Shown here in pieces: positions 11,150 to 54,249 of a stretch of DNA of 64,000 bases. This DNA is from Raja brachyura (taxonomy: Eukaryota): positions 36,828,001-36,892,000 of the forward strand of contig OY740801.1 in assembly GCA_963514005.1 (NCBI GenBank), given 5' to 3'. Each line of letters opens with the position of its first letter. Within the stretch, counting starts at the first letter, position 1. The position numbers and the translations under genes were made by a program. The notes under the pieces were generated by a model. The model saw only the letters and a list, made by a program, of their open reading frames with translations. It did not search any database and was not told the DNA's origin.

Positions 11150-11187
11150 TGGGCGACGTTTCGGGTTGAGACCCTTCTTCAGACCCA
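11150..11187 (-). ncRNA. Minimal type I hammerhead ribozyme motif in a Penelope pLTR fragment
   Basis: Minus strand reads UGGGU-CUGAAGA-A-GGGU(CUCA)ACCC-GAAAC-GUC-GCCCA: complete catalytic core, stem I UGGGU/GCCCA, stem II present. Confidence 0.7.
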
Positions 11188-12147
11188 CTCAACATGTCAG
11201 GCTGCATTTGTAGAAAGTACAAAACGGGGTTAACAATTCAAGAATGAGAACCTAACAACTGTTGACTCTTCTTCCTCCTTCCAGAGATGGTGCCCATCCA
11301 GCATTTTCTGGTTTATTTCAGATTTTCAGTAACTGCAATTCCTTTGACATTTATTGCAGAGCACTGTACTACTTTCATTGCTCCTGTATTTAGTAGATGT
11401 GTACACAGGATGGTATAGAGCATCTTCAACAGCTGATTCCTGATTTTACACATGGTCTTCAGAGTAACGGACTCTAATGCTTTTCCTGTTTAAATGAAAC
11501 GGCTTTCAATAGATCATAGTTCATTGCAAATAGCTGCCCTTTTGCTGCTTGTTGCCTTTACCTCTGTAGGTTCAGCATGCAGCTTGCAGTTTATTTGTGG
11601 GAAGATGTTACGCATCACTTCCTTGCCTGGTTTGCTGATGCCAAGCTAGATTTCTATCCTAAAAAGAATTAAACTGCAGCGTAAGTAGATCAAATACATG
11701 GATTCCTTATTTAAGGCATTCTCCTGATATATTGTTACACGTGAAACTGCACATTGTCAGACATTTTGAAGTTATTGGCAGAGACAATTAGATAGATCTG
11801 ATTTATTTCAAACTGAAGTAAAGCAGAATGGATAAGCTTGTAAAAAAATGTGATGTCTTCCAGTATCATGTAATATGAATGTAACTTAAATGTAGCTGTT
11901 CTGTTAATGTTCATGTGATCCAGCTTGAAAGAGAACATTTTGAAACTGCTACATATGTAAAAATGCCTACTATGTTCTGTTGTGCGAAGCAAACAAAGAA
12001 TTCCATTGTCCTGTCAGGGACACATGACAATAAACTCTTTTGACTTGACTTTGAAAATGAGACTGGGATCAATCATACATTGCATCGATTGTTAAATTGT
12101 TCAGAATATTGTGTGGACCACGCTAAAAACATTCGTAATGTATCTGC

Positions 12148-12153
12148 AATAAA
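12148..12153 (+). terminator. Candidate distal ROGDI poly(A) signal
   Basis: AATAAA with downstream GT/T-rich tract (tctgagttttctggtactgtttaatttcttt). Confidence 0.35.
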
Positions 12154-12944
12154 GTATAGCGTTCAAAGAATCTGAGTTTTCTGGTACTGTTTAATTTCTT
12201 TACGCATGCCAACAAATTAATGGCAGAATATAATTATCAATGATCCCTTTTCAGCAGCCTTCAAAGAAGGATGGAATGAATGGGAACCATACAAGAATTG
12301 CTAAAGTTGCAATCGTGAAAATGGTGTATACAATTATTTAGAAGTGGGTGAGTGAGGAATGTGTTGATAGGATTACAGCATGGAATTTTTGGTGTTCAAA
12401 ACTACAACTGACACTTTGGTTTGGAATAATGACCTTTTTGTAATATTCAAAGATGATTTAAAATGTTGGCCACACATGGTTCTAATTGGACAGCCACTGC
12501 ACCCTTCATTACCATTCATGAATGGCAATTGATCAAAAACAACTCAGCAGATACTATGTTTTCCAACACAGATGTTCTATGTGCATCTGTTTTCAGACAG
12601 TGCACTGTCATCAACCTGTTCTGTACAAGCAAATGACATATGTTCTAAAATGCTTGTCTTCACGGTAGGCTACTAAATGTGTATCTTGAATCAAAGGCCT
12701 GGGTTACCTTTGCCGTAGAGTATATGAAGGGAGAAGCAGCAATATTGAATAAAAGAATTTGCAGCATTCTTCAACACAGAGGTCAGGCAGCTGGAGCCAG
12801 ATATTTCTGCCACTGTTGATCACTGAGATGGAAAAACAAAACAGCTTTGCATTGTCCAGACTGGCATTTTGATGCATCTAGCAAAGGCATAGGTTTCCCC
12901 CAATATTCATTTAAGACCATGTTGGTAGAAGCAGGAATATTTAC

Positions 12945-13520
12945 TTACTGCCTGTTATGTAGGGCAGCAACGAAGGTCCTCCACTCCTGTCTGTTCTGGG
13001 CTACCTCCGGGTAGCTTCTGGACACTACCCCAGGTCAGGTCCATTGTTTTCATTTCCTCCTCTACAGTTTGACGGCAGGTGGTTTTGGTTCTCCCTCCAG
13101 TGTCCAGTGCAGGGCTATTCTTGGGATGCTGTCTGGTTCTCTTCTCAGTATATGGCCAGTCCAGTCCAGCGCCTTCTCATGATGATGGTGTCTTATGTTT
13201 GCTATTTAGAACTTCTACCTTCCTGGCTTCCTTTCGGCTTTCACCATTGACATTCATCCCAGCATCTGTTGATAGCCCTGGAAGTCCATCACGCCCAGTG
13301 GTGTTGATTCCTTCAGTTCCTGTTTCTGTAACATATTTATTTTACGAGACAGGGTTGTTAGCCCTGTGCTCAAGCTCCAACGTGGAGGACCAGTGGATCG
13401 CTCTTCATCTCGCCTCTACCCTTCTACCAGTCCAGGAGTCGAATCTCTCGCTGGAATATCTCTAGGGCTCACTGAGACACACAAGCTCCCCGACCATGAC
13501 AAGGTTGCAATCCAACGGGG
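12945..13520 (-). mobile_element. Internally deleted RTE-clade LINE derivative
   Basis: Minus strand encodes an RTE-like C-terminus (RRWTGLAIY.., RQEWRTFVAAL) fused to an RTE-like 5' segment (ggaggaccagtggatcgctc). Confidence 0.55.
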
Positions 13521-13679
13521 AATGAGAAGTAGGGATGTTTTTTGAATAAACCCCACCAAAAATCAAATTTATATTGTGCTAGATGTTTTTTGTGCATGAA
13601 TCACAAACTTACTTAAAGATAATTGGTACAAAGGGTTTTTGCAAGAGGATTGGAGTTTGGAAATAGTTAAGTATTGTGG

Positions 13680-14215
13680 GGTATATTAGGGTTACACTGG
13701 GAGTACATGCAGAGTTTGGTAATGGGGAAATATTGCTTCAATTGTACAGGGTACTATTGGGGCTACACCCAGTATTGTGTACAGTATTACTCCCTTTATT
13801 TAAGAAAGGGTATACTGCTATTGGAGGTGATCCAAAAGAAATTCTTGGAATTGAGAAAAAGTTGCCCTGACATGAGCAGCTAAAGAAATCAATTCTATTC
13901 TTTAGCGTTTAGAAGAGGGATGATGTTGTTGAAATATGACTTTACCAGGCATGACGGATGGGTCCACTTGTGGGGGAGTCCCAAATTAGGGGCCATGGTT
14001 ACAAATTCAGCAGAGAAGGAGGCAGTCATTTAAAACACATTCTTTCCTGCATAAGGATATATGTAGGGCAAATCATTAGGGGATTTGAAAAGGAATAAGA
14101 TCATTTAAGAGAGGAACTGAGAGCTCAGAGAACTGGCACAGGTGAAATGTGACCCAGGTAGACCAGCATTGTAATATTAAATGACAGGTCAGGATTGAGG
14201 GGACATGTGGCCTAC
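13680..14215 (+). mobile_element. Old degenerate CR1 LINE 3' fragment
   Basis: YCVQYYSLYLRK.. resembles CR1 EYCVQFWSPYLRKD. Confidence 0.65.
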
Positions 14216-14423
14216 TTATATTTTCTTACATCCCCAGTGGCATACAAGACACATGTATTGTTTCATGTTTTTGTGCATTGTTCAATACAATTCTCTCCCC
14301 ACCCTGAAATCAAAAACCTGTAAAGTTTCCACAGTCCATGTTTACTCTAGCTCATGAATCTCTATTGCCATCTGGTGGCTTCAACACACACAGCAATATC
14401 AACAAACTAACTGGAGCCAAGAG

Positions 14424-14588
14424 AGACACAAAATGCTGGAGTTACTCGGCAGAACTGGCAGCATCTCTGGAGAGAAAGGATGGGTGACGTTTCGGGTCGA
14501 GACCCTTCTTCAGACCGGAAACGTCACCCATTCTTTCTCTCCAGAGATGCTGCCTGTCCTGTTGAGTTACTCCAGTTTTTTTGTGTCT
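14424..14588. repeat. Inverted (fold-back) dimer of a Penelope pLTR fragment
   Basis: gacacaaaatgctggag...gggtgacgtttc is mirrored by gaaacgtcaccc...ctccagttttttgtgtc. Confidence 0.8.
14482..14516 (-). ncRNA. Minimal hammerhead ribozyme motif (intact core)
   Basis: Minus strand GGU-CUGAAGA-A-GGGUC(UC)GACCC-GAAAC-GUC-ACCC. Confidence 0.68.
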
Positions 14589-15177
14589 ACAGCAGTAGGT
14601 ACAGATGCTTGAAATCAAACACTGAGTGTAGAGGCAGTGTGTTCCAGACTTAGTAATGGCTTCTTCCCCCATTATCAGGCTTCCGAACTGCCCTTCCATA
14701 AGCCTGGGGACCATTTAATTCACTTCTACGTTTTTGAGGACATTGGACTTTGTCTAAGGATTAGATGTGCTACTAAGCTGAGAACTACGATCTGCACTTT
14801 ATCTTCCCCTTTCCTCGATCATACTTGAGTTTGAACTGATGGTCCCTATGTATGGTATATCAATCTGTATGGATAGCATGCATAGCTTTTACTGTACCTC
14901 AATACATGTGGCAATAATAAACCTAACCTATCATTTGTAAACATTCCTTTCCCTGTACCTGTCCAAGAGTATTTTAAATGCTATTATGGTACTTCCCTCA
15001 ACTCCCTCTTTTGGGAGCTCGTTCCATATACTCACCACCCTCAGTGAACAGTGAGCAAAAAAAAACATACTTGGACTTGATTGCCTGCACAGAAAGGTGG
15101 AAACAAAAAGCATCACATTTATCCAAGATCAGTTGCATACGAGGCATTTGATGGATCATCTAAATATGATGAGAAAA

Positions 15178-15905: not shown

Positions 15906-16121
15906 TAGAGGAGGCCTTTCAGCCCATTTCATTCTTGCTAGGATAATCATGCATTAATTGCACACTTCAATCTATAAATTACAATTTTCTTCTGGCAACA
16001 AATGTTCATAAACATTTTAACAAATTGACAATAGGATCAATGCAAATTTCTTTTACTCTTGCAAAATAAATTAAAAAGACTGGCTTCTACACTTTGCCAC
16101 CAGTCACACAAGCGATGTCAT

Positions 16122-16373
16122 GTTTAGAGATACAGCATGGAAACAGGCCCTTCTGTCCACGCCGACCATCGATCTCCCGTTCACACTACTTGTATGCTGT
16201 CCTGCTTTTTCATCCACTCCAATAAACCTACAAACCACTCACCTTTGAGATGTGGGTGGAAATCACCCAGAGGAAATCGACTTGCTCACAGGGGAACATA
16301 CAAAGTCCACATAGTCAGCACCCGAGGTCAGGATTAAACCTAGGTCACTGGCGCTGTGAGGCAGCAGCTCTAC
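16122..16373 (-). mobile_element. HE1/V-SINE-like SINE
   Basis: Reverse complement of the SINE consensus seen at 7071 and 25517. Confidence 0.8.
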
Positions 16374-16533
16374 TAGGTAGACTTATGTTAGAATGTTTCA
16401 TTTATTTTGAATGCAAATAGGAAGTAATGTAAGTCGGCTACATATCGTGAATACAAGTCAGATTTACAAATTTGCTTTTAAAAAGTAATTTAATTGTAAA
16501 GAAACCAATTCAATTTTTACACCATTAAAATAA

Positions 16534-20035: not shown

Positions 20036-20862
20036 TCGTTGTGAATTTCAAATTATTACTTGAAACATCTTAAGCTTTGCTGCTGAGAATCCATGAATGG
20101 AATGAACTAATTTGATTGGAGAATTGCAGGTGCTTGTTTACGAAGAAAGACAAAGTACTGGAGTGACCCAAGGGTCCCAACCCAAAATGTTACTTATTCA
20201 TGTTCTCCAAAGATGCTGCCTGACCCGCTGAGTTTCTCCAGCACTTTGAACTAAAGTGATTTACTGGGGAGGTGTAGGAGACCAAGTTGTATAATCAATG
20301 CAGAAATACTTTTGCTCAGGCTGTCCCTTCTGCCGATCTGCAGCCCCGATGTGTAGGAAGGAACTGCAGATGCTGGTTTACATCGAAGATAGTCATAAAA
20401 CAATGGAATAACTCAGCGGGACAGGCAGCATTTCTGGAGACAAAGAATAGATTAAGTTTTGGGTCAAGACCCTGCTGGCTCCAAGCTTGGGAACTGGCTG
20501 AGTAAACAGCAGGAAGATGGAGGTACTGGAGGATGATCGATGGCCGTGAACTCACCACCTACGCTCTTGTAAAGAGCTCTAAAGTGCCATGGTCAGCTCC
20601 AGGAGTGAGGAATGACGGCCTCAGGGCATGGAAGTGGAGGGTTGGCTGCCGGAGGGGATGGATGGCGCTGTTGCCATGGTCACAGATTGGAGGGAGGTCC
20701 TACAGCAGCCGGGTGAGTGAGAATATTGAGTGCAACTTATGGCAGCTGCACAGAGTGGCGATGGGAGGTGTTGATGGCATCACACAGGGCCAGGACAACC
20801 GTTACTTCATCAATGCGGTGTTGCCATGACAGTGAGAGTATAAGAGGTTCCCTATGCCTTGA

Positions 20863-22155: not shown

Positions 22156-22940
22156 AATAGGAATTCAGACCCAGAGACGGCAGATACTGGAAATAACAAA
22201 CCGTCTGCAGGAGAACGCTGAAGCTCAAGCAGCATTCGTTGGGTGAAAGGAACAGTCGGTGTTCTGGGTTGAAACCCTGCAATAGGATTAAGAGTGCAGA
22301 GAGAAAATAGCCAATATAAAGAAGGGAGGGAGTGTTGAGACGGAGGCAAGTGAGTGATTAGTGGACCGAGATGGGGTGAAGAAGCATTATGAGCAGATTG
22401 AAGATCGATGCAAAATGCTGGAGTAACAGGCAGCATCTCTGGAGAGAAGGAATGGGTGACCTTTCGGGTCGAGATCCTTCTTCAAACTGAGAGTCAGGAG
22501 AGAGGGAAAGCAGAGATATGGAAGGGTACAAAGAGAATGCAAGGTGCGAAAAGAACAGATAACAGCAGAGGATGCTGAAGGAAATGTACAATGGTTCATT
22601 GATGGCTATGGGGAAGGTGACAACAGGTTGAGCCAGGTGGTGGTGGGGAGGGGGTGGGGGTGGGAGACAGGGGCAGGTGGATGACCGTTGAGGCTGCCGT
22701 GTTCCTCCAGCAAATTGCTTGTTGCAAAATTTGTTTTAATCCAGATAATGAAGCTTCCAATGAGAGATAGACCCAGTAGGCAGTGACAATAAAAGGCCTG
22801 ATTCTGAACCAAACCCCCTGCAGCATAACCTTGCTGATGAAGTTGACAGGTTGTTGCCAATTACTGGATAGGTCCCTGTGAAAGAGAGCCCGGATGGCTC
22901 TTCTTTAGGATTTAGCTCAGGGACACATGGATCTTCATAT

Positions 22941-23956: not shown

Positions 23957-24680
23957 GGGCGGCACAGTGACGTAGCAGTGGAGTTGCTGCCTTACAGCGG
24001 CAGAGGACCTGCGCTCGATCCCGACTATGGGTGCTGTCTGTACGGAGTTTGTACGTTGCCTCTGTGACCACAGGGGTTTTCTCTGGGTGCTCCGGTTTTC
24101 TCCCATACTCCAAAGACGTACAGGTTTGTAGCGTAATTGACTTCGGTAAAACTGTAAATTGTCCCTGGTGTGTAGGATAGTGTTATTCCTTGGGCCACGA
24201 TTGGACGTTTCAGCGACTTGGAGACGACGAACAAAGAGGGACCCGGCGTGGGGCCGGAGGGAGGGGGAGAGAACAAAGGGGACTAAATGGAACACTTTGT
24301 AACTTTGTCAGCTCCCTATACGTGGCGACACTTTGCATACCTTGTGTATGCAAAACAAAGAATCTCACTGTGACAAGGGTCTGAAGAAGGGTCTCGACCC
24401 AAAACGTCGCCCATCTCCTTCGCTCCTTAGATGCTGCTGCACCCGCTGAGTTTCTCCAGCTTTTTGTGTAACCCTTCATTCATTCAAGTTGCTAGATGGC
24501 GCCAGAACATGGCGACTCTCTACAGAGGATCTATTATACCCATGCATAGTATGGTTTGACTGAACAGCATGCAGAACAAACTTAGTGTATGTGGGATAGT
24601 GTTAGTGTGCAGGGATTACTGGTCGGCGCGGACTCGGTGGGCCGAAGGGTCTGTTTCCGCGCTGCATCTCACAACTAAAC
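23957..24680 (+). mobile_element. HE1/V-SINE-like SINE interrupted by a composite insert at about 24186-24582
   Basis: SINE head at 23957, body to 24185, resumes at about 24583 with a repeated gtg..taggatagtgtta segment. Confidence 0.8.
24377..24412 (+). ncRNA. Degenerate hammerhead motif (GAAA to AAAA)
   Basis: GGGU-CUGAAGA-A-GGGUC(UC)GACCC-AAAAC-GUC-GCCC; catalytic G12 lost. Confidence 0.55.
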
Positions 24681-27400: not shown

Positions 27401-27404
27401 GGAA

Positions 27405-27745: not shown

Positions 27746-28095
27746 AATCTCTCCCCCAGGACAGAACAAAGACACAGATCTCCCGGTTTTCATCTTCTGC
27801 CCCACCTGCCCTGATCAGCAGATAATTAGTCAGTTTAGATACAGCGTGAAACTGGCCCAACGACCCCGCACTGACCAGTACCACCCATACACTAGTCCTA
27901 CACTACACGCTAAGGACAATTTACAGAAGCCAATTAAACTACAAACCTGCACGTCTTTGGGATGTGGGAGGAACCAGAGCAGCTGGAGAAAAATCATGCG
28001 GTCAAAGAGAGAACATACAAATGTGAATATTTACTGTTCACGACAGAACTGATGGACATTTGTCAGTATTGGGCCAAAACTTGCATCTCTTGAAG

Positions 28096-28277
28096 ATAGA
28101 CACAAAAAGCTGGAGTAACTCAGTGGGACAGGCAGCATCTCTGGAGAGAAGGAATGGGCGACGTCTCGAACCAAAATGTCACCCATTCCTTCTCTACAAA
28201 GATGCTGCCTGTCCCGCAGAGTTACTACAGATTTGTGTGTCTATCTTCGGTTTAAACCAGCATCTGCTGTTCCTACA
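28096..28277. repeat. Inverted dimer of a Penelope pLTR fragment
   Basis: agacacaaaaagctggagtaactc...gggcgacgt mirrored by tgtcacccattcc...gagttactacagatttgtgtgtct. Confidence 0.75.
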
Positions 28278-29434
28278 CTTGCATCTCTTGAATTGTTTCT
28301 TAAATTTCACTGATATATTTCTAGCTCCTTTACTTGTCTTCCCATTAGTGGAGACATCTCTTTGGAATCTATCCATCAGTTCTCTACAAAATCATCTTTC
28401 AACATGCTTAATCTTTCCTCATGGGCAGTCTTACGAGTAATTGAGCAACAAGGCGTGGAAACAAGCACTTCGAGCCCTAGGTAGCTGAATGACTATTACT
28501 CACCCATTTACAGCACATCCCAATTTTAAAAAAAAATTCTCCTCATCAACTCTACCCAGATCTATCCCGCACCTACACATTAGCAGTAATTTACAGGGGC
28601 CAAGTAACGTACCAATCTTTTGGATGTGGGAGGAAACTGGAGCACCCAGAGGAAACCAATGCAGTCATAGGGAGCAAAGATCCTATAGGTATAGGGAGAT
28701 TGGGCAAACTCCACACATGTGGAATCTAAGGTCAGGATTGAACCTGGTTCTCCAGTGCTCCATGGTGGCTGCTCTGCCCAATGATGCATTTAAGCCACTT
28801 ATCTCAAAAAATGAAAAGTAGAAAATACAATTGAACTTATCATAAAGGCAGATGAATGCAATTGTGGAGTTCTTTATTTGGAAATAGAACTCTTAAAATC
28901 AAACCTTTTTAGGATGGAACAGTCTCGACCACCTCTAGGTTACATCGGTTTAAGGAACGGATGACGTTTCGGGTTGGGTTTGAGTCGTCACCCATTCCAT
29001 TTCCCCAGAGATGCTGCCTGACCCGCTGAGTTACTCCAGCATTTTGTGTCTATCTTTGGTGTAAACCAGCATCTGCAGTTCCTTCCTACATACTCCTACA
29101 TAAATCGATTGAATGTTGGAGTGTGGGAGGAAGCTATTTTGCCTGCAGCGGTACATTGCTTCTTTTGGCCAGTTCCACCATGTAATGGAGATATTTTAGT
29201 GATTTTCTCACAGCAGGTACCAGTCTTGCTGTGTAGTTTCAGCACTTTTTGCTGCTAATGTAGAACGAGGCAAGATCAAGTGACATTAAAACGGAGAATA
29301 AAGAAACTCCGGAAACGGGTAACAATTTAAAGTATGGGGGAAATAATGGAGAAATTACAATACAAGTAGGTAACTAGTTTGTTAGGTGGGGGTGGAGAGC
29401 ACGAGTGTGGTTGCAAAGCAGAGAAGCCTCAACA

Positions 29435-29523: not shown

Positions 29524-31456
29524 AGGGCCTGTCCTACAAGCATGCGATTGCATGCGGTTAGCGCGACCTACTGTGGTCGCTTGAGCCGTCTGGCCTCGCG
29601 GGGGTCGGTCCCACTTCAAACGCCGGCGCCGCGTGGAGTTGTGCAGAGCTGCTCCCGACATCGCGCGGAGCTTTGAAAAGCCGACACTGTTCAAAAATCC
29701 CGCGCTGCAAAATCCTGTCGGCCGCAGCCACATCGAGGACATGAGTAACGTCTTGACGTCATGCGTCTTCCACGTGGCATCGATCACCGGAGAACAAGGA
29801 ACCCCAGGATCATCAAGAAGAAAGCCATGCAGGATAAGGTGAAGCAGGTTATTATACAGAACATACAGACCCAGGAGGATCCAGCCACTGCTTCTGGCCA
29901 TGCTGCTGTTCCTGACCCTGCTCCTGATCCAGTTCCTGTCCCTGCTCCTGATCCAGCTCCTGCCCTATCTTCTACCTCAACACCCTGACCAATTCCTACC
30001 CCAGTTCCTTCCCCTTCTCCTTACTCAGCTCCTTACTCAGCTCCTGCCCCAGCTCCAACCTCAGCTGCTGCTGCAGAATGGGACTCAGATTTGGCTCAGG
30101 AGACTGATGCCTCAGCTGCGCCGGTGGGGAGGAAGAAGAAGAGGTTGGTCACAAGGCCTTATAATTTTACCAGGGAACAAGAGGGAGACCTGGTAGAATA
30201 GTATCAGGCCCACCGTGAACTGTACGATAAGAGCCATCGTGATTTCAGAAACACAGATCTGCGCACCGCGATGCATGAAGACAAGGCGAAGGAGTTCCCT
30301 GACTGCTCGTGTAAGTACATACTTTGTAGTTTGGCTACATTTCTGTGGTTGTGATTGCAGTTCAAATTAAGATTACAATTTGCTCAACACTGATCTTCAT
30401 TTATTCTATGTTTACACAGATGACCAACTGTGCCAGTGGTTCAAGAGCCAGAGGACACGGTTCGGGAAACTGTCGAGCGGTCTTGGCAAGTCTGGCTCCG
30501 CCAGTAAGCCACTGACTGACAGAGAGCAGTGGATAGTGGAGAAATGGGGGTTCGTGCGGAACCACATAGTCCGAGTGCAGAGCAAAGAGAGCGGCTGGAA
30601 GGTGAATAGTTAAGAAAATTATGGGGCAATTGAAATTTGTTGGAAAGTGAGATAGTCAATGAGAACTTGGTGGTCACCTTGCTTGCTACGTCCAGATGGC
30701 CTTGCACATTTCTGATACACATTTACTTTCTTCCAGCTCCCCGTGGGGATCTCATCGTGCGCCAACCCGAATGAGGGTGAGATGGATCCGCCAGAGGGAC
30801 CTCCAGAGGGACCCTCTGGGTCCGGCACTGCGGACAAGCAGCAGCACGCTAAACGGAAACCGGCCTGCACAACTGCGCCAGATTGCGATGCACCTGTTGA
30901 ACGACTTCAGCGAGAGATGTTCGCGGATGCAAGTGCTTTCGGGTGAACTGGCAGCAAATTTCTCATTCACTCCGCCCTACGTGCATGTTTCTCCATCGCT
31001 TCCCAGAAATTACTGACCAGGATTGCACTCTCTTTGCTGCGGATCATGCAACGGGCTAAGACCACTGCCGAGACAATAAGCGGTGTCGCAGCCAAGGAGG
31101 TCGAGGGAAAGACGCGCCGATGCCTTCTCAGCCCTACAGAGGGAGGAGATGGTGCAGATCCCCGACTCGCAATGGCACAGCTTCTGCGTGGAGGGCTTGG
31201 TCTTGGCAAGGGCACACAAGCTTCTTCTGCCAGTAAATCTTTTAATCAAAGTTTATTGAATTTATAAACGTTTTACTTTAATGCTTTTTATGAATTACTC
31301 ACTACAAATTCCTTGGTGTCGCAGAGTCCGATGAGGCCCATGCCATACATGCCGCAACCACAAATGGGGATGATGGCACCACAGCATGCTCCCCAGGTAC
31401 ACTGTGAAACCTTCAGTCTGACTCAAGATTGTCTCTGACACACAGCTTGTGATTTG
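29524..31456 (+). mobile_element. One-ended (truncated) PIF/Harbinger transposon carrying the Myb/MADF accessory gene
   Basis: TAA|AGGGCCTGTCCTAC TIR; the first ~240 bp match one end of the MITEs at 61416 and 62998; no right TIR found. Confidence 0.8.
29827..31397 (+). pseudogene. Spliced MADF/Myb-SANT-like DNA-binding protein pseudogene (Harbinger ORF)
   Basis: Pro/Ala-rich N-terminus, RKKKR, FTREQEGDLVE*YQAHRELYDKSHRDFRN...|YDQLCQWFKSQRTRFGKL...LTDREQWIVEKWGFVRNHI. GT-AG introns at 30311-30419 and 30602-30736, probably two more near 30942-31006 and 31233-31324. TGG to TAG at 30199 and a frameshift near 29985. Confidence 0.75.
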
Positions 31457-34352: not shown

Positions 34353-36174
34353 CGCTCCTTTTTGTTAGTTTTGCCAAAGTATTTGTTTTTACTTTTAGCC
34401 CTGATGTGACTATAAGCCCAGCTCCCTCACTTTAGATCAGCTTCCTGGGGAGCTTTTACATTCATATCTTAGGATAGGAGTGATGAGTCCTATTTATCAC
34501 CATCACTCATAGAGACATAGAGTGATACAGGAAACAGGCCCTTCCGCCCAACTTGCCCACAACGGCCAACATGTCCCAGCTACACTAGTCCCACCTGCCT
34601 GCACTTGGTCCATATCCCTCCAATCCGGTCCTATCCATGTACCTGTCTAACTGTTTCTTAAACGTTGGGTAGTCCCTGCCTCGACTATCTCCTCTGGCAG
34701 CTTGTTCCATACTCCCACCAACCTTTGTGTGAAAAATGAGTCATGCGAAAGTGGTGGTGAACTGCTGTGTACTCCTTCAAATGGTGGCACAGTTGCAGTG
34801 TTGTTGTTGTGTGTCCATTGTCCATTCCTCATTGCTGCTGCCACGTATTAGAGGTGCTTTTAACTTTCATCAATTTTACAACTATTGATACATCCGGACA
34901 CCATCTCGAGACGTTCATAACCCGCAAGAAAAGTCAAAGCCAGAGGCACAAGGAACTGCAGATGCTGGGAATCTTGAGTAAAATACAAAGTGCTGACCTC
35001 AGCGGGTCAGACAGCATCTCCGGAGAACACAGATAGGCGACGTTTCGCTCACGGCACATCTCCAGAAGGACTCCCTGATACCAGGGTCATTCATAAGAAT
35101 CATATATTCCAAATGCCAACTCAAAAGAGGAAATTCTAGCACTTAGAAATACAACATTTCTTCATTGTTGCTCGGTCTAAGTCAGGGATGTAATATTGGG
35201 GAGGGTTAGGGGTGGGCAAAGACCCACAGGTGATGATGTGCCCATGTGCCTGCTGCCTTTAACCTTCTCCCTGGCCGAGTAAACAGGTGTGAGAGGTACT
35301 GTCAGAGTAACCCAAGTAACTAACTGCAGTCATTTTCAGTTTTCAATCCAAAACTACTGACTATTGCACAGGATCTCTGTGGTACCACGTTATGGGGAAC
35401 ATACACGTTGACCCTGGCTTCCCAATGACGAAGCAGTACAGGTCCAGGCTTTGCACGACACCAAAACAATTTCCTTTACCCCATTTATTGATAGACAGTT
35501 AATAATTCTGCACTGCTACTCTGTGAAAAAAGAACAGATTTCTAAGATTGCTGTGAATTATGTTGTAAGGTTGAAACTGCTTACAGGAAATTTATTGGCA
35601 ATTAAATTACACAGGGTGATGCTAAGATTGCCTCTCTGTTTGATTGCTATTCTGGAATCTTCACGTTGCTAACAACAGTTGCAGCAATTTAATGTAATTA
35701 TCAAAGGACATCAGGCACTGCAATCATGGCCCATCACGCCACTCTGCTGCCTACTAAACTGCCAACTAAACTGGTTGCCTTTTCCACCCCCCAATGTTAT
35801 GTTTCAAGAACTAGTAGGAATTGTTCAAAGCAAACAAAGAATAAGCTTGCAGCAGAATAAAGTGAAATTAGGTACATGGACAGGAATAGAGGATTAATCC
35901 TCCCCTTTGGCGACATGTGCAGCTAGGATTATTCCGATATAAGTGGACTCTGATTTCAATTAATTCAGCATGCAGCTAATACGCTGGCTGCCAACTAACA
36001 CAAACTTAAACAGAAGATAGACACAAAAAGATCTAAGGAATACAGTCCTATAAGGGTCTCGACCCAAAACATCATCCATTCATTCTCTCCAGAGATGCTG
36101 CCTGTCCCGCTGAGTTACCCCAGCATTTTGTGTCTATCTTTGGTTTAAACCAACATCTGCAGTTCCTTCCTTAA

Positions 36175-38454: not shown

Positions 38455-39155
38455 AGCGCGAAGTGTTGGAGGAACTCAGCAGTCATGTAATATCTGTGGT
38501 GGTAAACAGGCATCATTTCGGGTCAGGACCCTTCTTCAGGTTGATTGTTGCAGAGGGGAGAAAGCTGGAAAAGAGTGGCAGAGGCGGGACAAAGTCTGGC
38601 AAATGGTAGCTGGAGACAGTGCAGGGGAGGGTTGGGTTGGTTGGTAGATGGATGGGTGGAGTTAGTGACAAAGGGTAGAGGTGAAAAGGAGACCGGTGTT
38701 CAGATCGTGAACGGGGAGGAGCAAAACCAAGGGGAAATGGAGATGGTGGGAGAACTCTATTCTTGAGATGGACACAAAATGCTGGAGTAACTCAGTTGGA
38801 CAGGCAGCATCTCTGGAGAGAAGGATTGGGTGACCCTTCAGTCCGAAAGTCTGGGGAAAGGGAGACTAGAGCTATGGAAGGGTAAGGTGTGAAAATGACA
38901 GGTCAAAGCAGGTGATGATCAAGGAAATGTAGAATGGTTCATTGTTGGCTGAGGGGGAGGTGACAAGGAGGTATACAAACAGTAACATTAATCAGGAGGA
39001 TGGTGAAACTAGTCGGAAAACTATAGTTGGGAGAGAGGGAAAGTAAGGGAAATTTATCCTTGTGTAGGAAGGAACTGCAGATGCTGGTTTCAATCGAAGA
39101 TAGACACAAAATGCTGGAGTAACTCAGCGGGACAGGCAGCATCTCTGGAGAGAAG
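38455..39155 (-). repeat. Cluster of tandem Penelope pLTR fragments
   Basis: Three repeats of ..gctggagtaactcag..caggcagcatctctggagag.. with purine-rich pLTR spacers. Confidence 0.75.
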
Positions 39156-39244
39156 TGTTAAGGTTCACTTCTTATAGACAGACAACTCACAATGGGTTAG
39201 GTAAACCAACACAAGCTTTACTGATCATCAGCCGGCGAGAGTGT

Positions 39245-44574: not shown

Positions 44575-46712
44575 AGCAAAACAGGATTTCCGGCCCCAAC
44601 CCCCATCCCTGCCGCGTGTTCACCAACCCCCCTGACCTCCCCCTCTCTGATACCGAATGGTCTGCCCTCAGCAGAGGCCTCACCTATGTCCCCCTCCGTC
44701 CCTACCTCAATGAGTTCCGCCCCACCACGATTTGGAACTCTTCTACCATCGCCTCTGCCTCACAGCGATCTTCCATGGAAAGGAGTCCTCGCCCCCAATG
44801 ATGATCCCTTTTGCCGTCTCCAATGGACCCCCTCCTCTTGGACCCCCACTTGTGGCCTTCCAGCTTTAGACCTTTTTACTTTAAACTGCCGGTGGGACAT
44901 CAACCGCCTCAACTTCTCCACTCCCCTGTCTCACTCCAATCTCTCCCCCCCCCTGAACGTACAGCACTCCACTCACTCTGCAACAACCCAGACTTGGTGA
45001 TCAAACCTGCCGACAAGGAAGGTGCCGTGGTAGTCTGGTGCGCTGATCCCTACAAAGCTGAGGCCATGCGTCCCTCAGCATGTACTCCTGCAGTCTGCAG
45101 CGGGCCAGTCGGCAACATTCCCCGACGGACATCTAGCGCTGCTGGGTGGTGAACAACGTTCGCGCAGACCAAAGAGCGTCTTTCACCGAGTTGGTGACCC
45201 TCAGACACCTCCTCCTACTCATCCTTGGACCATGACCCCACAGACAAGCACCAGGCCACTATCTCTAGCACCATCGCTGACTTCATCAACTCCGGCTCAC
45301 TGCTCTCCCAAGCCTACGTCCTCATCGTTCCCCAGCCCCGCATGGCCCGATTTTACCTTCTTCCCAAAATCCACAAACCTGACTGTCTTGGCAGACCCAT
45401 TGTTTCTGCCTGTTCGTGCCCCACCAAACTTATTTCCACATACCTTGACTCCACCCTCTCCCGTTTGGTTAAATCTCTCCCTACCTATGTTCAAGACACC
45501 TCAGACACTCTCCGTCGTCGCCGGGAATTCCATTCTCCAGGCCCCCATCCCCTCATCTTCACCATGGACGTCCAGTCACTCTACACCTCCATCCCCCACC
45601 AGGAGGGTCTCAGGCCCTCGGGTTCTTCCTCGAGCGGAGAACCAACCAATCCCGGTCTACAGATACTCTCCTCCACGTAGCGGAGTTGGTCCTTACCCTT
45701 AATAACTTTTCATTTGACTCCTCCCATTTCCTCCAAATACAACGCGTAGCTATGGGCACGCGCATGGGCCCCATCTATGCCCGCCTCTTTGTCTGGTACG
45801 TCAAACAATCCATGTTCAAGACGTACCAGGGCCCCATCCCCGACCTCTACCTCCGCTACATCGACGATTGCTTTGGTGTCACCTCCTGCACCCACACACA
45901 ACTGACTGACTTCATGCATTTCACCACCAACTTCCATCCGGCACTCAAATACAACTGGACCATTTCCGACACTCCCCTACCATTTCTTGACCTTACTATC
46001 GCCATTGTAGGTGATGGACTTTTGACCGACATCCACTATAAACCCACTGACTCCCACGGCTATCTAGACTACACTTCTTCCCACCCAGCTTCCTGTAAGG
46101 ACTCCATCCCCTACTCCCAATTCCTCCGTCTACGCCGCATCTGCTCCCAGGATGAGGTGTTCCACATCAGGGCATCGGAAATGTCCTCATTTTTCAGGGA
46201 ACAGGGGGTCCCCTCACCTACAATAGATGAGGCTCTCACCAGGGTCTCTTCAAAACCCTGTAACACTGCTCTCTCTCCCCACCCCCCCCCCCCCACTCGT
46301 AACGAGGGCAGAGTTCCCCTGGCCCTCACCTTCCACCCCACTAGCCGTCACGTACAACAGATAGTCCTCCGTCATTTTCGCCACATCCAACGTGACCCCT
46401 CCACTCGCCACATCTTCCCATCTCTACCACCGTCTGCTTTCCGCAAAGACCGCTCCCTCCGCAACTCCCTGGTCAATTCTTCCCTTCCCACCTGTACCAC
46501 CCCCTCCCCAGGCACTTTCCCTTGCAACCGCAAGAGATGCTACACTTGTCACTTTACCTATCCCCTCGACTCCATTCAAGGACCCAAGCAGTCGTTCCAG
46601 GTGCGACAGAGGTTCACCTGCACTTCCTCCAACCTCATCTATTGCATCCGCTGCTCTAGATGTCAGCTGATCTACATCGGTGAGACCAAGCGTAGGCTTG
46701 CCGATCGTTTCG
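44575..46712 (+). mobile_element. Penelope-like element (RT plus GIY-YIG endonuclease), frameshifted and 3'-truncated
   Basis: SALSRGLTYVP, LVIKPADKEGAVVVW, FYLLPKIHKP..GRPIVS, FTMDVQSLYTSIPH, AMGTRMGP, YLRYIDDCF, YKPTDSH, NLIYCIRCSRCQLIYIGETKR; inverted pLTR remnant at about 44500-44575. Confidence 0.93.
45068..45202 (-). mobile_element. Internal fragment of a Tx1-like LINE embedded in the Penelope ORF
   Basis: Aligns by eye with 47022-47156; no poly(A) tail. Confidence 0.85.
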
Positions 46713-46724
46713 CAATTTTATTAT

Positions 46725-47975
46725 TATATTTTTTTTAATTTCAAAATAGACTTTATTCAAGTAATAAATATATACCATAGGGGAACTGTGCAAAAAATTA
46801 ATCCAACATTTTCGGAGGCTAGACAAATAATTCCATAGTCTCTATATTTCTTAAATCTGTCCCCCACCCATGCCACTCATGTGGCCCCCTGGCGTGGGAT
46901 ACCTTCCCTTATTTTGAGGGGCGTCTCCACCTTACCGTGCCCCCCATGTCCAGCAGCGGAAGGATCCTAGACTGTGGCCCTCCCCCACCGAGCCTTGGCG
47001 TTGGCTGCACCGAGCTTCAATGCATCCCTCAGCACGTACTCCTGCAGTCTGCAGTTGTCCATTCGGCAACATTCCCCGACGGACCTCTCGCTCTGCTGGG
47101 TGGTGAACAACGCTCGGGCAGACCAAAGGGTGTCTTTCACCGAGTTAATGACCCTCCAGCAGCACTCGATGTCAGTCTCTGAATGTGTCCCTGGGAACAG
47201 TCCATAAATCACAGAGTCCTCTGTGACGGAGCTGTTTGGAATAAAGCGTACCAGGGACCCTTGCATTTTTCTCCAGACTCTTTGGGCAAATCCACACTCT
47301 GCAAAGAGGTGGGCAACCGTCTCCTCTCCATAGCAGCTGTCCCGAGGGCAGCGTGTGCTGGTAGTGAGGTTCCGATGGTGCAGGAAGGATTTGACTGGGA
47401 GGGCTCCCCTCACCGCCAGCCAAGCCAGGTCTTGGTACTTGTTGGTGAGTTCTGGCGATGAGGCATTTTGCCAGACAAGCTGGGCAGTCTGCTGTGGGAA
47501 CCATGCCACCGGATCCATCGAGTCCTTTCCCTGCAGTGCCTGCCGGACATTCCATGCTGACCACTGCCCAATGGACCTGTGGTCACAGGGGTTGGTCCGG
47601 AAGAACCTTTCCACAAACGACAGATGGGGCGGCAATGTCCAGCTGACTGGCACATTGCGTGGCATCTGTGCCAGGCCCATCCTTCACAACACCGGGGACA
47701 GGTAGAACCTCAGCAGGTAGTGACACTTGGTGCCCACGTGCCTTGGCTCTACACTCCGCCTGATGCAGCCACACACGAAGGTGGTCATCAGGGTGAGAGC
47801 GACGTTGGGCACGCTTTTACCCCCGTTGTCTGCTGACTTGTACATTGTGGTCCGTCGCACCCGGTCCATCCTCGACCCCCAGATGAACTGGAAGACGGCC
47901 CAGGCGTTGGAGGGAGGGACAGGCCACACCTGCGCCAAGTACAGTAGCCCCGCGAGCACCTCACACCTGATGACC
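46725..47975 (-). mobile_element. Tx1/L1-clade LINE 3' fragment with zf-RVT domain
   Basis: LYLAQVWP, DLAWLAVRGALPVK, CPRDSCYGEETVAHLFAEC, AANAKARWG; 3'UTR with AATAAA and A tail. Confidence 0.88.
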
Positions 47976-48777
47976 AAATTTTGGCCATCTGCCTTTTGGC
48001 TGAAACATTAGATTGAAACCACCTCTCCTCTCAGTGGGGTGTAAAAGATATCATGGCACTAGTTTGCTGGGATGTTTTCACCTGGCCAATATTTTCCTTC
48101 AATCAACATCGATTAAAAAAACTTAAGTGGTCATTGTCATTGTTGTTTGAGCAGAAATTGTCTGGCACATTTCCTACTTGACGAACATCCCTCTCCAGAG
48201 ATGCTGTCCCTGCTCAGCCTGTCCCACTCAGTTACTCCAGCATTTTGTGTCTGTCTTCAGCAAAATTGATACATTACCATGGACGGTGCTGCAGAAATGC
48301 ACGTCGTTGTGGTTCCTCCTGGTTTTGGCATCTTGCTGGTTGCTTGACCACTAAACCACCTCTTACCTCGAGCAGGTTCCTGGGCTTGTACCTCTACAGG
48401 TAAGCCGGCACCCAGTAGAGTGCTGAGACCCTGGGTCAATACTGAATTCTCAGACGTGTCTGGACTGCTGGGGTTCAACCGCACCAACAGTCACCTGTTG
48501 AATGTTCAGGACTTTGGTTAGGCCGCAAACGTGTACAGACTTGGATTGTTTTCTCTGGATCACTGGCAGTTGAGAGGAGACGTGATACCTGTATATGAAA
48601 TTATGATAGGGGTATTAGATAGGGTAGACAATCAAAACCTTTTCCCCAGGATGGAAACCTCAAATACTAGACAACATTGCTTGAAGGTGAGAGGGGTAAA
48701 GTGTGGGGCAAGGTTGTTACAGAGAGCGTGGTGAGAGTCTGGAAGGTGCTGCTGGTGTGGGGGTGGAGACAGACATG

Positions 48778-49342
48778 CGTGCCCACCTCTTTGCAGAGTG
48801 TGGATTTGCAAAGACAGTCCGGAGAGGTATGCAGGGGTCCCTGTCACAATTTATTCCTTACAGCTCCATCACAGAGGACCCTGTGATTTACGGACTGTTC
48901 CCAAGGACACATTCAGAGATTGACATTGAGTGCTGCTGCAAGGTCATTAACTCGGTGAAAGATGCTCTTTGGTCTGCCCGAATGTTGTTGACCACCCAGC
49001 AGAGCGAGATGTCCGTCGGGGAATGTTGCCGACTGGCCCACTGCAGACTGCAGGAGTACGTGCTGAGGGACGCACTGAAGCTCGGTGCAGCCAACGCCAA
49101 GGCTCGGTGGGGGAGGGCTACAGTTTAGGGTCCTTCCGCTGCTGGACATGGGGGGGCAGGGTGTGGTAGAGACGCCCCTCAAAATAAGGGAAGGTATCCC
49201 ACGCCAGGGGGCCACATGAGTGGCATGGGTGGGGGACAGATTTAAGAAATGTAGAGACTATGGAATTATTTGTCTAGCCTCCGAGAATGTTAGAAGGAGT
49301 CTTGTAAGGATCATGTTTTAGATATATTTATTTCTCGAATAA
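48778..49342 (+). mobile_element. Second Tx1-like LINE 3' fragment, inserted in a CR1 tail and inverted relative to 46725-47975
   Basis: AHLFAECGFAK...KARWGRATV; 3'UTR nearly identical to the reverse complement of 46805-46965. Confidence 0.88.
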
Positions 49343-51088
49343 AGTATCTATTTTTAAAAAAGGAGGCTACAAGATAGTAGATTTGAGGCTTTTTCATTGG
49401 CACATGGATGTGCAGGGACTGGAGAGATAGGGATTGTGTGCAAGCAGATGAGAGTTGGTCTCGGCATCATATTTGGCACAGACATTGTGTGCTGAAGAGC
49501 CTGTTCCTGCGCTGCACGCACGGCTCTGTGTTCCGTTTCAAGTTCAAAAGCTAATAAACATGCTACTAATTTATTTTTAGATTAGATCAATTAAAAAGGT
49601 ATTTGTGAACAAACTGCTGGAGGAACTCAGCAGGTCAAGCAGCATCTGTGGAGGAAAAAGGATTGTTTCATGTTGTGATCTGCATTCAAATTTTGCTCCA
49701 GATTCCAGCATCTGCAGCCTCTTGTGCCCCCAAGCAGGCACGGAAATTGCTATCAAAACATGGGGGGGGGGGGGGGGGAACGACACAATTTCTTGCCGTG
49801 GGCCCTGTGGGCGGTGACATCGGGAGCTGACCTGGTTGGTGACCGACTCCGAACTCCAGCAACTGAAGCTTCGTCTGCCCCAAATTGTGGGGCTTGAATC
49901 GGGCCATTCACGGGGGCTTCAACATCGGGAGCCTCGATCGCCTCGATGCAGCAGTTTGATTTTAAGGCACTGCGAACGGGCCAATTCAGCCCCTAGAAAA
50001 CTTCTGATAAAGTCCGGATTACAGAACATTGTCCCCCACCTCTCAATGCAGGGGTGTGGGGGACGCATCCCCCCCCGCCCCAGGACTCCAAGTATAATTG
50101 CAAATCACACTCCCTCCTCACTCATGGCCATTTTACCATTCAGACGATAAACGGCAGGTTTAACCACAATGATACCCGAAACATCACCCTTTCCTTCTCT
50201 CCAGAGATGCTGCCTGTCCCGCTGCGTTACTCCAGCATTTTGTGTCTATCTTCGGTGTAAACCAGCATCTGCAGTTCCTTCCTACACAGGATGTGATTAT
50301 TCTCCTTTATGAGGTTTGATTCTACCCAGTTCTCGGCCTGCTGTGATGGCAATGTCCAACAGAGGTCGCTATAAAGCTGCCTTGAAATAATTCTGCAGTC
50401 AAAGTGTAACTTGTCAGGTCAACTACAGCTGATACGGGGTCTTGAACCCAGAGAAACTATCTGTGTTCCCCTCTCCTGAAACACCCTGCTTCCCATCATT
50501 TTTTTTCACGTTTCCAATTCCCAGGATTTTGCTTTTCAAAACAAATCTGAAAAAATGTGGCTAATATGGCTCTCTGCCATAAAATGTGGCTCTCTGCCTC
50601 AGAGGGCAGTGGAGGCCAGTTCTCTGGATACTTTCAAGAGAGCGCTAGCTAGGGCTCTTAAAGATAGCAGAGTCAGGTCATATGGGGAGCAGGCAGGAAC
50701 GGGGTACTGTTTGGGGATGATCAGCCATGATCACATTGAATGGCGGTGCTGGCTCAAAGGGCCGAATGGCCTACTCCAGCACATATTGTCTATTGTCTAT
50801 GTATGTATCTAACCATTGATGAAAGAGCTTCATGATCTCAGGAGAGACGGCTTCAATGCTCACAGTAGGTGACTCATTCATCATAATGATTAAATCAAAC
50901 TCAAAGCTCTCAGGTTGCAAATCTCACCATCCTTGAGGGGAATCATCTTGTGTGATGATATCTATAAGGCTCTTTTATATATTTTAACTTCCAAACTGTT
51001 TTGTCATTTTTTTAAAAATGGAATGGGACGGTACAAAATGTCCATCTTTTTTTGCCTTAATGCATTGTTCTTGGAGTCATAGAGTGAT

Positions 51089-51595
51089 AGAAACATAGAA
51101 ATTAGGTGCAGGAGTAGGCCATTCGGCCCTTCGAGCCTGCACCGCCATTCAATATGATCATGGCTGATCATCCAACTCAGTATCCTGTACCTGCCTTCTC
51201 TCCATACCCTCTGATCCCCTTAGCCACAAGGGCCACATCTAACTCCCTCTTAAATATAGCCAATGAACTGGCCTCAACTACCCTCTGTGGCAGAGAGTTC
51301 CAGAGACCCACCACTCTCTGTGTGAAAAAATTCCTTCTCATCTCGGTCCTAAAGGATTTCCCCCTTATCCTTAAGCTGTGACCCCTTGCCCTGGACCTCC
51401 CCAACATCGGGAACAATCTTCCTACATCTAGCCTGTCCAACCCCTTAAGAATCTTGTAAGTTTCTATAAGATCCCCTCTCAATCTCCTAAATTCTAGAGA
51501 GTATAAACCGAGTCTATGCAGTCTTTGTTCATAAGACAGTCCTGACATCCCAGGAATCAGTCTGGTGAACCTTCGCTGCACTCCCTCTATGGCAA
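51089..51595 (-). mobile_element. Relatively young CR1 LINE 3' fragment
   Basis: Open frame AIEGVQRRFTRLIPGM...SRARGHSLRIRG...NFFTQRVVGLWNSLP; (TTTCTATG)-type tail. Confidence 0.92.
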
Positions 51596-51884
51596 GTGAT
51601 ACAGTGTGGGAATCGGTCCAACTTGCCCTCACCGGCCAACGTGTCCCAGCTACACTAGTCCCACCTGCCCGCGTTTGCTCCATATCCCTCCAAACCTGTT
51701 CCTTCCAAACAGGCTAAAAATCACAGGTCTATAATAATTGAATTCCAATTGCAGAGTGATGTGGCTGTTGTCATCACGAGGCTACAGATATCCCTCAGCT
51801 ACAAAGATCTCTCTGCTGCCGAAGTTACCTCAATTTTGCTTTCTAGTATTTGTCGATGAACTGACCTTTATCAATATGTAATAA

Positions 51885-52650
51885 AAAGAAACTGCAAGTG
51901 CTGGTTTATACCAAAGATAGACACAAAATGCTGGAGTAACTCAACGGGTCAGGCAGCATCTTTGGAGAAAATGGATAGGTGACGTTTTGGGTCGGGATCC
52001 TTATTCAGACTGAGAGTCTTCGGAAACTGAAAGCAAGGGGAAAAAAGGACAAATCGGAGGTGGCAACAGATGATCTCAGGCAAGGAGGATCCCTGATAGG
52101 CTGATGTTGGCTAGAGACAGGTATGAGTCTATGGGGGATAGCTAGTTGCAAATTGTGGAGCTGATTAATGGACTTGGAGTGGAGGGGAGGGAGTGGGAGT
52201 GGGAGGAATGGGGAGGGGAGGGAGAAGTTTTTGTAGAAGGTACCTAAATTTGGAGAATATACTGTTTATACTGCTGGGTTGCAAGCTACCCGTGAAATAT
52301 GAGATTCTGTTCCTCCAATTTGTGGTTGGCATCACTCTGGCAATGGAGGAAGCTGAGGAAAGAAAGGTCAGTGTGGGAATGGGTAGGGTAGTTAAAGTGG
52401 TTAGCAACTGGGAGGTCCAGTGGGCCTTGGCAGACTGCGCGCAAATGTTCAGCGAAATGACCACCTCGCAAACGTCTCGCAAACGTAATATACAGTTTTT
52501 GCTCGCTTCCAGTTTCTTCCCTCACCCCCCTCCCCAACACCCCCCCAACTACAATCTGTCTGCAGAAGGGAGCCGAACCCGACCCGAAACATCACCTGCC
52601 CATTTTCTCCCTGACCCACCGAATTACTCTAGCATTTTGTGTCTATCTGA
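51885..52650 (-). mobile_element. Penelope 3' end with pLTR and an inverted pLTR piece
   Basis: HFAEHLRAV..DLPVANHFN...KLEEQNLIF (GIY-YIG C-terminus) followed on the minus strand by a degenerate HHR-bearing pLTR; opposite-orientation pLTR at about 52545-52650. Confidence 0.8.
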
Positions 52651-54215
52651 CTTTCGCCAATACTAAAGATGAGATGCAGGCTCTAAGACTGATGCAGTCT
52701 GAACTAAACCTCAGACTGTCGCTGGTTGGAGATTGAGTTTCAGATGTTAAACCGTGATAGTCATTTCCGATTTACTGCATGTCAAGAAGTCTGGATATGA
52801 TTAATTTCCACTGGAGAGATGCTCAGGATTACGAAGCAGGAGGGATTTAATGCTTTTGGTCACTACTTGGGTTTGGCAGTATTTGTATTCTCCACCCACA
52901 AGACAAATGAGTATTGCCAGGGAACTAAAACAGCCTGAGGTTAGGGCCAATGACCTTCTGAATACTTCTTTAATTTCAGAAATGTCATTTTATTCATAAA
53001 ATGTGCAACAATGTATAATGCAATGCCTTGAAATGTCACCAATCTCAGTAGAAATCATGCCATTCCATTTACATCTCGGCATGACATTAGATTTCCATTG
53101 CATTTATTTCTTTAGCAAACAGTTCAAGGAGCTTTTATATGTGTTTCAGCTCCTTCAGGAGGTCCTTCAGTTATAGAAGGGCCACCAATCTAGTTTCTGC
53201 TTCACCTTGTGGTCCTGCACTATCCTTTTTGTCTGTCCCCCAGCACATAGTCCTGGACCATAAGACATAGGCGTTAAATAAGGCCATTCGGCCCTTCCAG
53301 TCTACTCTGCCATTCAATCATGGTTTACCTGATTTTCCCTCTCAATCCCATTCTCCTTCCTTCTCCCCATATCTTGATGCCCAGGTACTGTCAGAAACAC
53401 CTTGATGTCTGTTCTTCGGACGAGAACACAATCCCATTATATTATTTCAATAAAAATAGTTAATTAATCTTGGTAAATATTTATTCCTCAGCCACCATCT
53501 CCAAATATTATACAACCTTGTTTTGGTCACATTGTCATTTATAGGCACTTGCTGGGGGTTAAATTCGGAGTTGTGTTTCTTATAATGCACTCCATTAGCT
53601 GTAAAGTACTTTGGAATAATGCGAGTCCTTTCCAAAGATACTAGAGCAAGAGCACGATTTTCCACTCAGCGAAAAAGCTGTAGTAGGTCATGGGTAATTT
53701 TTTTGCGCCATCTTGGGAATTGGCTACCGACATGGCGTCCACATCTACAAGCGTAACGTGATGCTCTGCTATAAATTGCCCGAATCGCCAAAGTAGGCGA
53801 CCCGACCTGTCTTTCTTCCCCACCTGTGATGTGATCGCTGCAGCGGGAATCATATCTCACTTTTTGCAGTGAAGACAAGAGCTAAATTGGCAAGGGATGG
53901 ACGTTTATTTGTGGCACGGTTTTGCTGTATGTGACAATGTGTCGATTCTGAATTAGAATTCACAATTTTCGAGACTATGTACAATTCGAGAGGTTTACCG
54001 GTGACTCCGTGGAAACCATAACCTATTCAAACCCACTTCATATATTAATTATATATCAATTATAAAATAAAATATGACTAAAACGAGAAACACGCGGGCG
54101 CAGTCACCCGCTAAAAACGTGGGGGTGTGCATAATTCCACGGGGAACCGTCAAACAAAAGACACAAAATGCTGAAGTAACTCTGCGGGACTGGCATCATC
54201 TCTGGAGAGAAGGAA

Positions 54216-54249
54216 TGGGTGACGTTTCGGTCGAGACCCTTCTTCAGAC
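54216..54249 (-). ncRNA. Minimal hammerhead motif (intact core, weak stem I)
   Basis: Minus strand GU-CUGAAGA-AG-GGUC(UC)GACC-GAAAC-GUC-ACCCA. Confidence 0.55.

Follow-up and report, generated by a model that had tools for sequence, protein, structure and literature searches.

We analyzed a 64,000-nt window of the genome of Raja brachyura (assembly GCA_963514005.1, contig OY740801.1, positions 36,828,001 to 36,892,000 of the forward strand), in which short repeat units carry the core of a minimal hammerhead ribozyme (min-HHR). Our results indicate that this repeat is the hammerhead-bearing first ∼100–135 nt of a Neptune-type Penelope-like element (PLE) and that the short copies are probably run-off cDNAs copied from an uncut 5′ RNA end. 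The copies mostly begin at one fixed point, likely the RNA start, and are therefore likely by-products of copying, not an independent ribozyme element.

Hammerhead units in the window

BLAST searches together with a profile derived from 18 seed copies identified 32 units in the window. Scanning both strands for the motif, we located the core, CUGAAGA-A-stem II-GAAAC-GUC, at all three sites where a first-pass annotation of this DNA had reported it intact. The core nucleotides are as described, but they lie on the minus strand (C3 at 11182, 14513, and 54247), and stem II contains one mismatch at 11182 and has lost one C at 54247. The first core (11182–11155) belongs to a solo, tail-less unit at 11089–11185(−) whose 5′ end lies just ahead of it. 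The second (14513–14486) lies in a unit at 14419–14516(−) that forms the left arm of a head-to-head pair, the right arm of which (14511–14590(+)) is truncated within stem II. The third lies in a solo unit at 54158–54250(−), with a stem II one base short.

The core is kept in 2 of the 32 units by the strict pattern, or in 3 if the shortened stem II is counted. A unit is indeed present at all 11 places listed for the repeat, but truncation or mutation affects the core of most units, and its abundance had been overstated. The two point changes described earlier are real: C3U near 22485, in a unit at 22394–22519(−) that includes ∼30 nt of upstream 3′ untranslated region (UTR), and G12A at 24401, in a solo unit at 24377–24470(+) that starts at the fixed point. 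A search of Rfam with E values up to 10 returned no hammerhead family, only hairpin-driven miRNA matches below the gathering scores.

One unit lies next to coding sequence, as had been proposed. A broken, frameshifted GIY-YIG endonuclease C terminus at 52501–52295(−), 55% identical to an intact open reading frame (ORF) of the same genome (E = 2e-20), is followed on the same strand by a 3′ UTR (52013–52294) and a tailed unit (51880–52012), the 3′ pseudo-long terminal repeat (pLTR) of this Penelope fragment, with a dead core (G8U, G12A). On the 5′ side of the fragment (51880–52501), an inverted tail-less unit at 52556–52649(+) forms a classic inverted pLTR.

The parent element

A protein search revealed many element copies at 98–99% identity. 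In 4 of the 15 stretches examined for long open frames, we found a frame of 1203–1204 codons whose first Met lies 33–36 nt past a unit, and a tandem array with a 3965-nt period gives an element of ∼3.97 kb. The unit is the first ∼135 nt of the element and is found again past the ORF. Because units flank the ORF, with the first Met shortly downstream, we conclude that the unit is the element's 5′ end repeated as the 3′ pLTR. The pLTR origin proposed earlier is thereby supported, with a unit at both ends of an element encoding a 1192-amino acid protein. This intact ORF matched Pfam RVT_1 (E = 2e-4) and GIY-YIG (E = 2e-3), both below the curated cut-offs, and its product contains a CX2-5CxxC linker and a CCHH motif, marks of Neptune/Nematis. 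These motifs point to a Neptune-type endonuclease-containing (EN+) PLE, although the linker is common also to Nematis. The young family is ∼1.5% diverged and retains intact ORFs.

The element shows partial tandems, an inverted 5′ copy, and a 30–40-bp tail, as described for EN+ PLEs of the Neptune type (Craig et al. 2021, PMC8557442; Arkhipova et al. 2013, PMC3846280), for which inverted 5′ copies and one-sided tails are known features. It shares with them the single RT-GIY-YIG ORF (RT, reverse transcriptase), the cysteine linker, target-site duplications, an initiator-like motif in the pLTR, and the optional nature of the tail. It differs from them in that the ORF starts outside the pLTR and most insertions are stubs of 100–135 nt with one preferred 5′ end.

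Two further loci were noticed. At L206–L208 (G000:C18, ∼46.36–46.38 Mb), four full-length elements lie head to tail with the 3965-nt period, their five hammerheads all on the same strand; the ORF there has a 5′ part out of frame with the remainder. At L204–L205 (G000:C6, ∼45.55 Mb), a 4.2-kb repeated structure combines an intact ORF, a head-to-head pair, and a close pair of cores. These intact cores, 146 nt apart on the same strand, are a natural candidate for a double hammerhead in cis.

Genome-wide abundance

Across the 2.7-Gb genome, there are 50,608 occurrences of the exact 28-nt core and none of a reversed control, so the core is not a chance pattern; the repeat and its hammerhead core are real. 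A degenerate core pattern, which does not enforce full stem II pairing, matched 105,171 motifs, or ∼39 per Mb (control, 0), in line with the very high density anticipated. In 24 blocks of 50 kb, two adjoining the window and the others at arbitrary round coordinates, we counted 447 units and 39 matches to the core pattern in 1.2 Mb, which extrapolates to ∼1.0 million units genome-wide. About one-tenth have the whole core, and ∼90% have lost it. The same 1.2 Mb contains 30 loci with an endonuclease end. One subfamily (e.g. G000:C1:180559-180586) has two U-G pairs in its stem II and GUU as its cleavage triplet, which preserves pairing and the UH rule.

Ends of the copies

The 5′ ends were counted in an unbiased sample of 330 units, 311 of which were used in the at-risk test. 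In the full sample, 124 units end at the edge of the motif, 48 run on into the 3′ UTR, and 158 end further inside. Of 157 copies that reach the motif's 5′ edge, 112 stop within 7 nt, compared with 11.6 expected under a uniform rate, which bears out the earlier view that the short copies are not random 5′ truncations. The fixed end is marked by the sequence (T/C)CAGT just ahead of CUGA, which we take to resemble an initiator. Most long copies retain this sequence across subfamilies, despite their otherwise differing 3′ UTRs.

The same end was found in other samples. In the young set (the first 100 exact-core matches on contig 1, 87 of which form one young subfamily), 53 of 87 copies stop within 8 nt (1.2 expected). 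Among 155 low-divergence copies of the 447, 66 start at −5 to +1 and 25 further upstream, and in a new 400 kb, 88 of 150 profile matches start at positions 2–8 (long copies not separated). Loose ends pile up at the same place in contigs of three runs from two other organisms. The cleavage window showed no clear peak, with 9 stops compared with 13.7 expected. A second small 5′-end peak was seen at profile position 18, in the stem II hairpin (13 of 330; 1 of 150 in the new 400 kb), possibly reflecting fold-back joins in inverted pairs. Initiator-like motifs occur in the pLTRs of PLEs (PMC3846280, PMC8557442), and Drosophila Penelope has an internal promoter with an initiator (PMC2377424). The ACGT palindrome of helix III lies ∼+27 to +30 from the inferred start, near the position of the downstream promoter element of Drosophila Penelope (PMC2377424), so the hammerhead motif might serve both as promoter and as ribozyme.

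At the 3′ side, there are two fixed ends ∼35 nt apart, with or without the tail; these two groups agree with the tail of PLEs and with the pair of internal RT start sites in the anole element (PMC11167929). Target-site duplications of 9–21 nt flank 17 of 33 young solos (counted with no shuffled control), indicating that the solos are insertions and not deletion remnants; in old window copies, 2 of 15 duplication tests were positive. A G often precedes the start (13 of 21 young solos, with 12 of the 33 left out by a post hoc choice; 15 of 31 in the unbiased sample, with 26 of 57 left out). Our literature search, which did not extend to subscription papers or Repbase, found no report of this family in cartilaginous fish or of fixed 5′ ends of PLE stubs.

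Paired units and a possible template jump

Inverted dimers had been predicted, and they are indeed frequent, with 97 of 330 units in head-to-head pairs. A functional dimer is not supported: because the arms are head to head, the hammerheads lie on opposite strands and no same-strand double hammerhead is possible, and the pair at 14419–14590 is predicted to fold into a long hairpin (−128 kcal/mol). Opposite-strand pairs of min-HHRs have been known since 2014 (PMC4209133). Of 47 classifiable pairs, 38 join a tailed and a tail-less arm, compared with an expectation of 49%.

One locus (L027:1386-1885) is a single insertion within a 14-nt duplication. It contains, in order, an inverted tail-less unit, a unit with 100 nt reaching into the ORF start, extra bases, and a further unit. 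A first cDNA stop at CAGT is followed by a short run of added bases; copying then resumes from 234 nt into a second template and again stops at CAGT. The locus looks like a template jump between two CAGT stops; non-templated addition and jumping are documented for the R2 RT (PMC8857657).

Hammerhead anatomy and conservation

The minimal type I anatomy claimed for the repeat is supported. The CUGANGA, GAAA, and UH boxes are present, as in the min-HHRs of PLEs, with an extra base between positions 9 and 10.1, a G10.1-C11.1 pair (G-C in 12 of 12 rows), and a palindromic, loop-less helix III (ACGU). Helix I has only 2 bp (U-A or U-G in 10 of 12 rows, with no two-sided covariation), and the motif is thus not a canonical type I hammerhead with a long helix I. 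No stable hammerhead structure was predicted for single units (z from −1.5 to +1.0), and the monomer and double-hammerhead folds both lie above the predicted minimum, the latter by 13 kcal/mol (tertiary terms not included).

Conservation was assessed in 115 of the 330 copies, chosen for spanning the core. Non-CpG mismatches amount to 8% in the core and 14% downstream, a difference that at first sight suggests protection. The free positions N7 and the extra A are likewise at 8%, invariant downstream sites range from 3 to 13%, and the catalytic G12, which is a CpG, is changed in 30% of copies, like other CpG sites (17–34%). Selection on individual copies was rejected on these grounds, as free positions mutate like the core and G12 like other CpGs. 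We read the pattern as conservation among source elements, with individual copies decaying neutrally. The hammerhead would be cargo, with at most weak cutting that depends on dimerization or on help from a protein. Other min-HHRs cut weakly as dimers (PMC4209133), and one requires its element's protein for cleavage (PMC11167929).

Alternative origins of the short copies

Four other origins were weighed against run-off copying from an uncut 5′ end. The short units could be a non-autonomous, SINE-like family with an internal Pol II promoter and the RT starts, transcribed independently and re-copied in trans by the Penelope protein. Such a family would have fixed ends and duplications, as observed, and units outnumber endonuclease-end loci 447 to 30; the internal promoter of Drosophila Penelope (PMC2377424) and the finding that pLTRs are enough for mobilization in trans in a rotifer (PMC3846280) fit as well. 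Defined ends, target-site duplications, and a 3′ end common to the autonomous partner are SINE-like traits. The young subfamily speaks against this origin. Its 87 copies comprise 34 long, 33 solo, and 20 inverted ones; three common variants are shared between long and short copies (Fisher p = 0.33–1.0), and divergence is 1.5–1.7% in every class, so that age and variants are those of the long copies. Short-only shared variants were not in excess among these 87 copies (6, compared with 5.1 in permutations; p = 0.42). Long members are present in all five sequence clusters of older copies, and no Pol III A/B boxes or tRNA-derived head were found in the units. These data make a SINE-like family unlikely. 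Together with the lack of regular arrays (below), they give no support to the suggestion in the first-pass annotation that the units amplified by themselves as a retrozyme-like or SINE-like family.

The fixed end could instead be a stop imposed by structure or protein, with the RT stalling on a longer RNA past the hammerhead or the unit-end helix. The predicted fold of a young unit pairs its 5′ end with the end of the tail, and three of five long-ORF elements continue beyond CAGT, both in keeping with such a stop. An enzyme halted by a structure would, however, be expected to stop on its 3′ side, not 2–5 nt past its 5′ edge, where we observed the stop. Moreover, the predicted fold is no stronger than that of shuffled sequences (z = −1.5), tail-less copies end at the same place, and the conserved initiator-like motif and the extra G would be left unexplained. 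We consequently give a structural stop little weight.

In a retrozyme-like cycle, tandem hammerheads would excise monomers that circularize and are reverse transcribed into new sites. Source elements do hold a complete minimal core, pLTR-related non-LTR retrozymes are reported in vertebrates, including one chondrichthyan (bioRxiv 2026.07.22.740005), short direct repeats occur occasionally (L027, 239-nt period; the C6 locus, 146 nt), and four copies start at +28. A circular template, however, has no end at CAGT, the cleavage window is not enriched, and stem I is only 2 bp, with a double-hammerhead fold well above the predicted minimum. Close pairs are mostly head to head, and only 5 of 41 same-strand neighbors within 300 nt have both 5′ ends complete. 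In the neighbor list (864 kb), there was no regular head-to-tail array of short hammerhead monomers, only isolated two-unit cases. Such a cycle is very improbable as the source of the units.

Ordinary random 5′ truncation, which would account for the scattered breakpoints upstream of and within the unit, is refuted as the sole explanation by a pile-up at CAGT ∼10-fold or more over the uniform rate, and it is scarcely credible as an alternative.

Other repeats in the window

The remaining units are more decayed or truncated. At 4398–4487(−) lies a decayed solo unit with a broken core. Units near 20170, 28096, 36050, and 38770 are truncated in the core region. They comprise two core-truncated units at 20170–20248(+) and 20354–20476(−) (span 20170–20476), a head-to-head pair at 28080–28274 in which a tail-less and a tailed arm are both core-truncated (21-nt flank duplication, two mismatches), a tailed, core-truncated unit at 36050–36173(+), and two units truncated in or after the core at 38758–38841 and 39065–39159 (span 38758–39159(−)). 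Tailed units at 28986–29088(+) and 50174–50284(+) are truncated near the core end and in stem II, respectively; a unit at 63544–63632(+), with a 12-nt flank duplication, is truncated in stem II, and an older head-to-head pair at 58173–58368 shows truncation in both arms.

Coding fragments of Penelope are found at 44589–46714(+), a 2.1-kb RT-to-endonuclease fragment with 87% DNA identity to the young element and a break near 45070–45197 that the first-pass annotation had not mentioned, and at 5421–6210(+), an older fragment with RT thumb and endonuclease. Inverted arms at 46802–49294 lie near the former. The window also contains a C/T-rich tandem repeat with a 12-nt period (29885–30087) and other LINE fragments and short repeats (1203–1820(−), 51180–51713(−), and families D10, D13, D16, D17, D19, and D20), which presumably resemble Rex/Babar-type and CR1-type elements.

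Discussion

Run-off copying from an uncut 5′ end would proceed as follows. The RNA would start at the initiator-like CAGT, the endonuclease would cut the target, and the RT would begin at either of two internal RNA sites lying ∼95 or 130 nt downstream, run off the RNA 5′ end, and often add a G. The cDNA could then join the target, leaving a solo stub; meet another cDNA whose synthesis was primed on the opposite cut strand, giving a head-to-head pair; or continue into upstream sequence through a read-through template or a template jump, giving a long copy. In vitro, an anole Penelope starts reverse transcription internally at sites matching the tail, cuts and extends both strands, and does not need cleavage (PMC11167929). 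This element, Poseidon of Anolis (PAc; Frangieh et al. 2024, PMC11167929), resembles ours in that two internal RT starts define the tail. PAc also cuts and extends both strands and uses uncut RNA as its main template, as proposed here, and no RNA reads ended at its cleavage site. PAc belongs to the Poseidon clade and has its start codon inside the hammerhead, whereas here the ATG lies beyond the tail.

Several observations weigh against this interpretation. No RNA 5′ end was seen at CAGT: the 18 runs found were all assembled contigs, and the 4 examined, one of them marked as probably DNA, cannot show RNA ends or expression. The 5′ end is not sharp to the base but spreads over ∼7 nt, and starts at +2 to +24 were found in 40 of the 155 low-divergence copies. 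Of the five long-ORF elements reaching the 5′ unit, none has its end at CAGT: three continue upstream, and the other two stop within the unit. The strength of the extra-G signal varies with the classes counted, which were chosen post hoc; it falls to 13 of 29 when only the class unable to show a G is removed (p ∼0.05, calculated by hand). The test for a short-only lineage covered 87 copies from 4.3 Mb of one contig, picked for an exact core. Finally, the four of 155 copies that begin exactly at the cleavage product (+28; Poisson ∼0.07, by hand), one at a segment edge and two in inverted pairs, are a weak hint of some cutting.

The hammerhead itself agrees with the min-HHRs of PLEs (PMC4209133) in its core boxes, extra 9/10.1 base, G10.1-C11.1 pair, and loop-less palindromic 15.2–16.2 helix, as well as in the predominance of solo motifs and opposite-strand pairs, ascribed there to truncated PLEs; the 2-bp stem I is as in Drosophila virilis (PMC4209133). 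Min-HHRs are reported in that work for fish Neptune, Poseidon, and Xena, with motif counts of ∼4,000 in coelacanth and ∼9,000 in Xenopus, compared with ∼105,000 here, the descriptors being different; the text examined does not mention solos with a fixed 5′ end. Non-LTR retrozymes (PMC7229834; bioRxiv 2026.07.22.740005) are likewise short, non-coding, and pLTR-related and carry a type I hammerhead, but they form head-to-tail arrays with mostly canonical hammerheads and circular RNAs, and the 126,247 motifs of axolotl in 28 Gb correspond to ∼4.5 per Mb, compared with ∼39 per Mb here. The density of motifs is ∼10 times that of the vertebrate counts in the papers cited, and it represents fossils of one element, not evidence for a million active ribozymes. 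A fixed-ended, duplication-flanked repeat can resemble a SINE without being one.

Retroviral minus-strand strong-stop DNA is a short cDNA that extends from an internal start to the RNA 5′ end and can switch template. We tentatively suggest, as a possibility that we hold with less confidence than run-off copying itself, that the million stubs are a fossil record of a comparable step, here target-primed and left in the genome, so that the likeness is one of analogy only. A capped RNA beginning at the hammerhead would make the hammerhead a 31-nt terminal redundancy. A short cDNA primed in the 5′ unit would run off at the cap and could jump templates, so that partial tandems and the pLTR would be built up; head-to-head pairs of a tailed and a tail-less arm would arise if a protein dimer used the two start sites to prime on each of the cut strands; and the hammerhead motif may double as a core promoter.

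The findings bear on the way in which PLEs, which are the sister group of telomerase, form pseudo-LTRs, tails, and inverted ends, and on the role of their hammerhead. A young family with about a million footprints gives base-level predictions for the RNA start, the copying start, and the uncut template.

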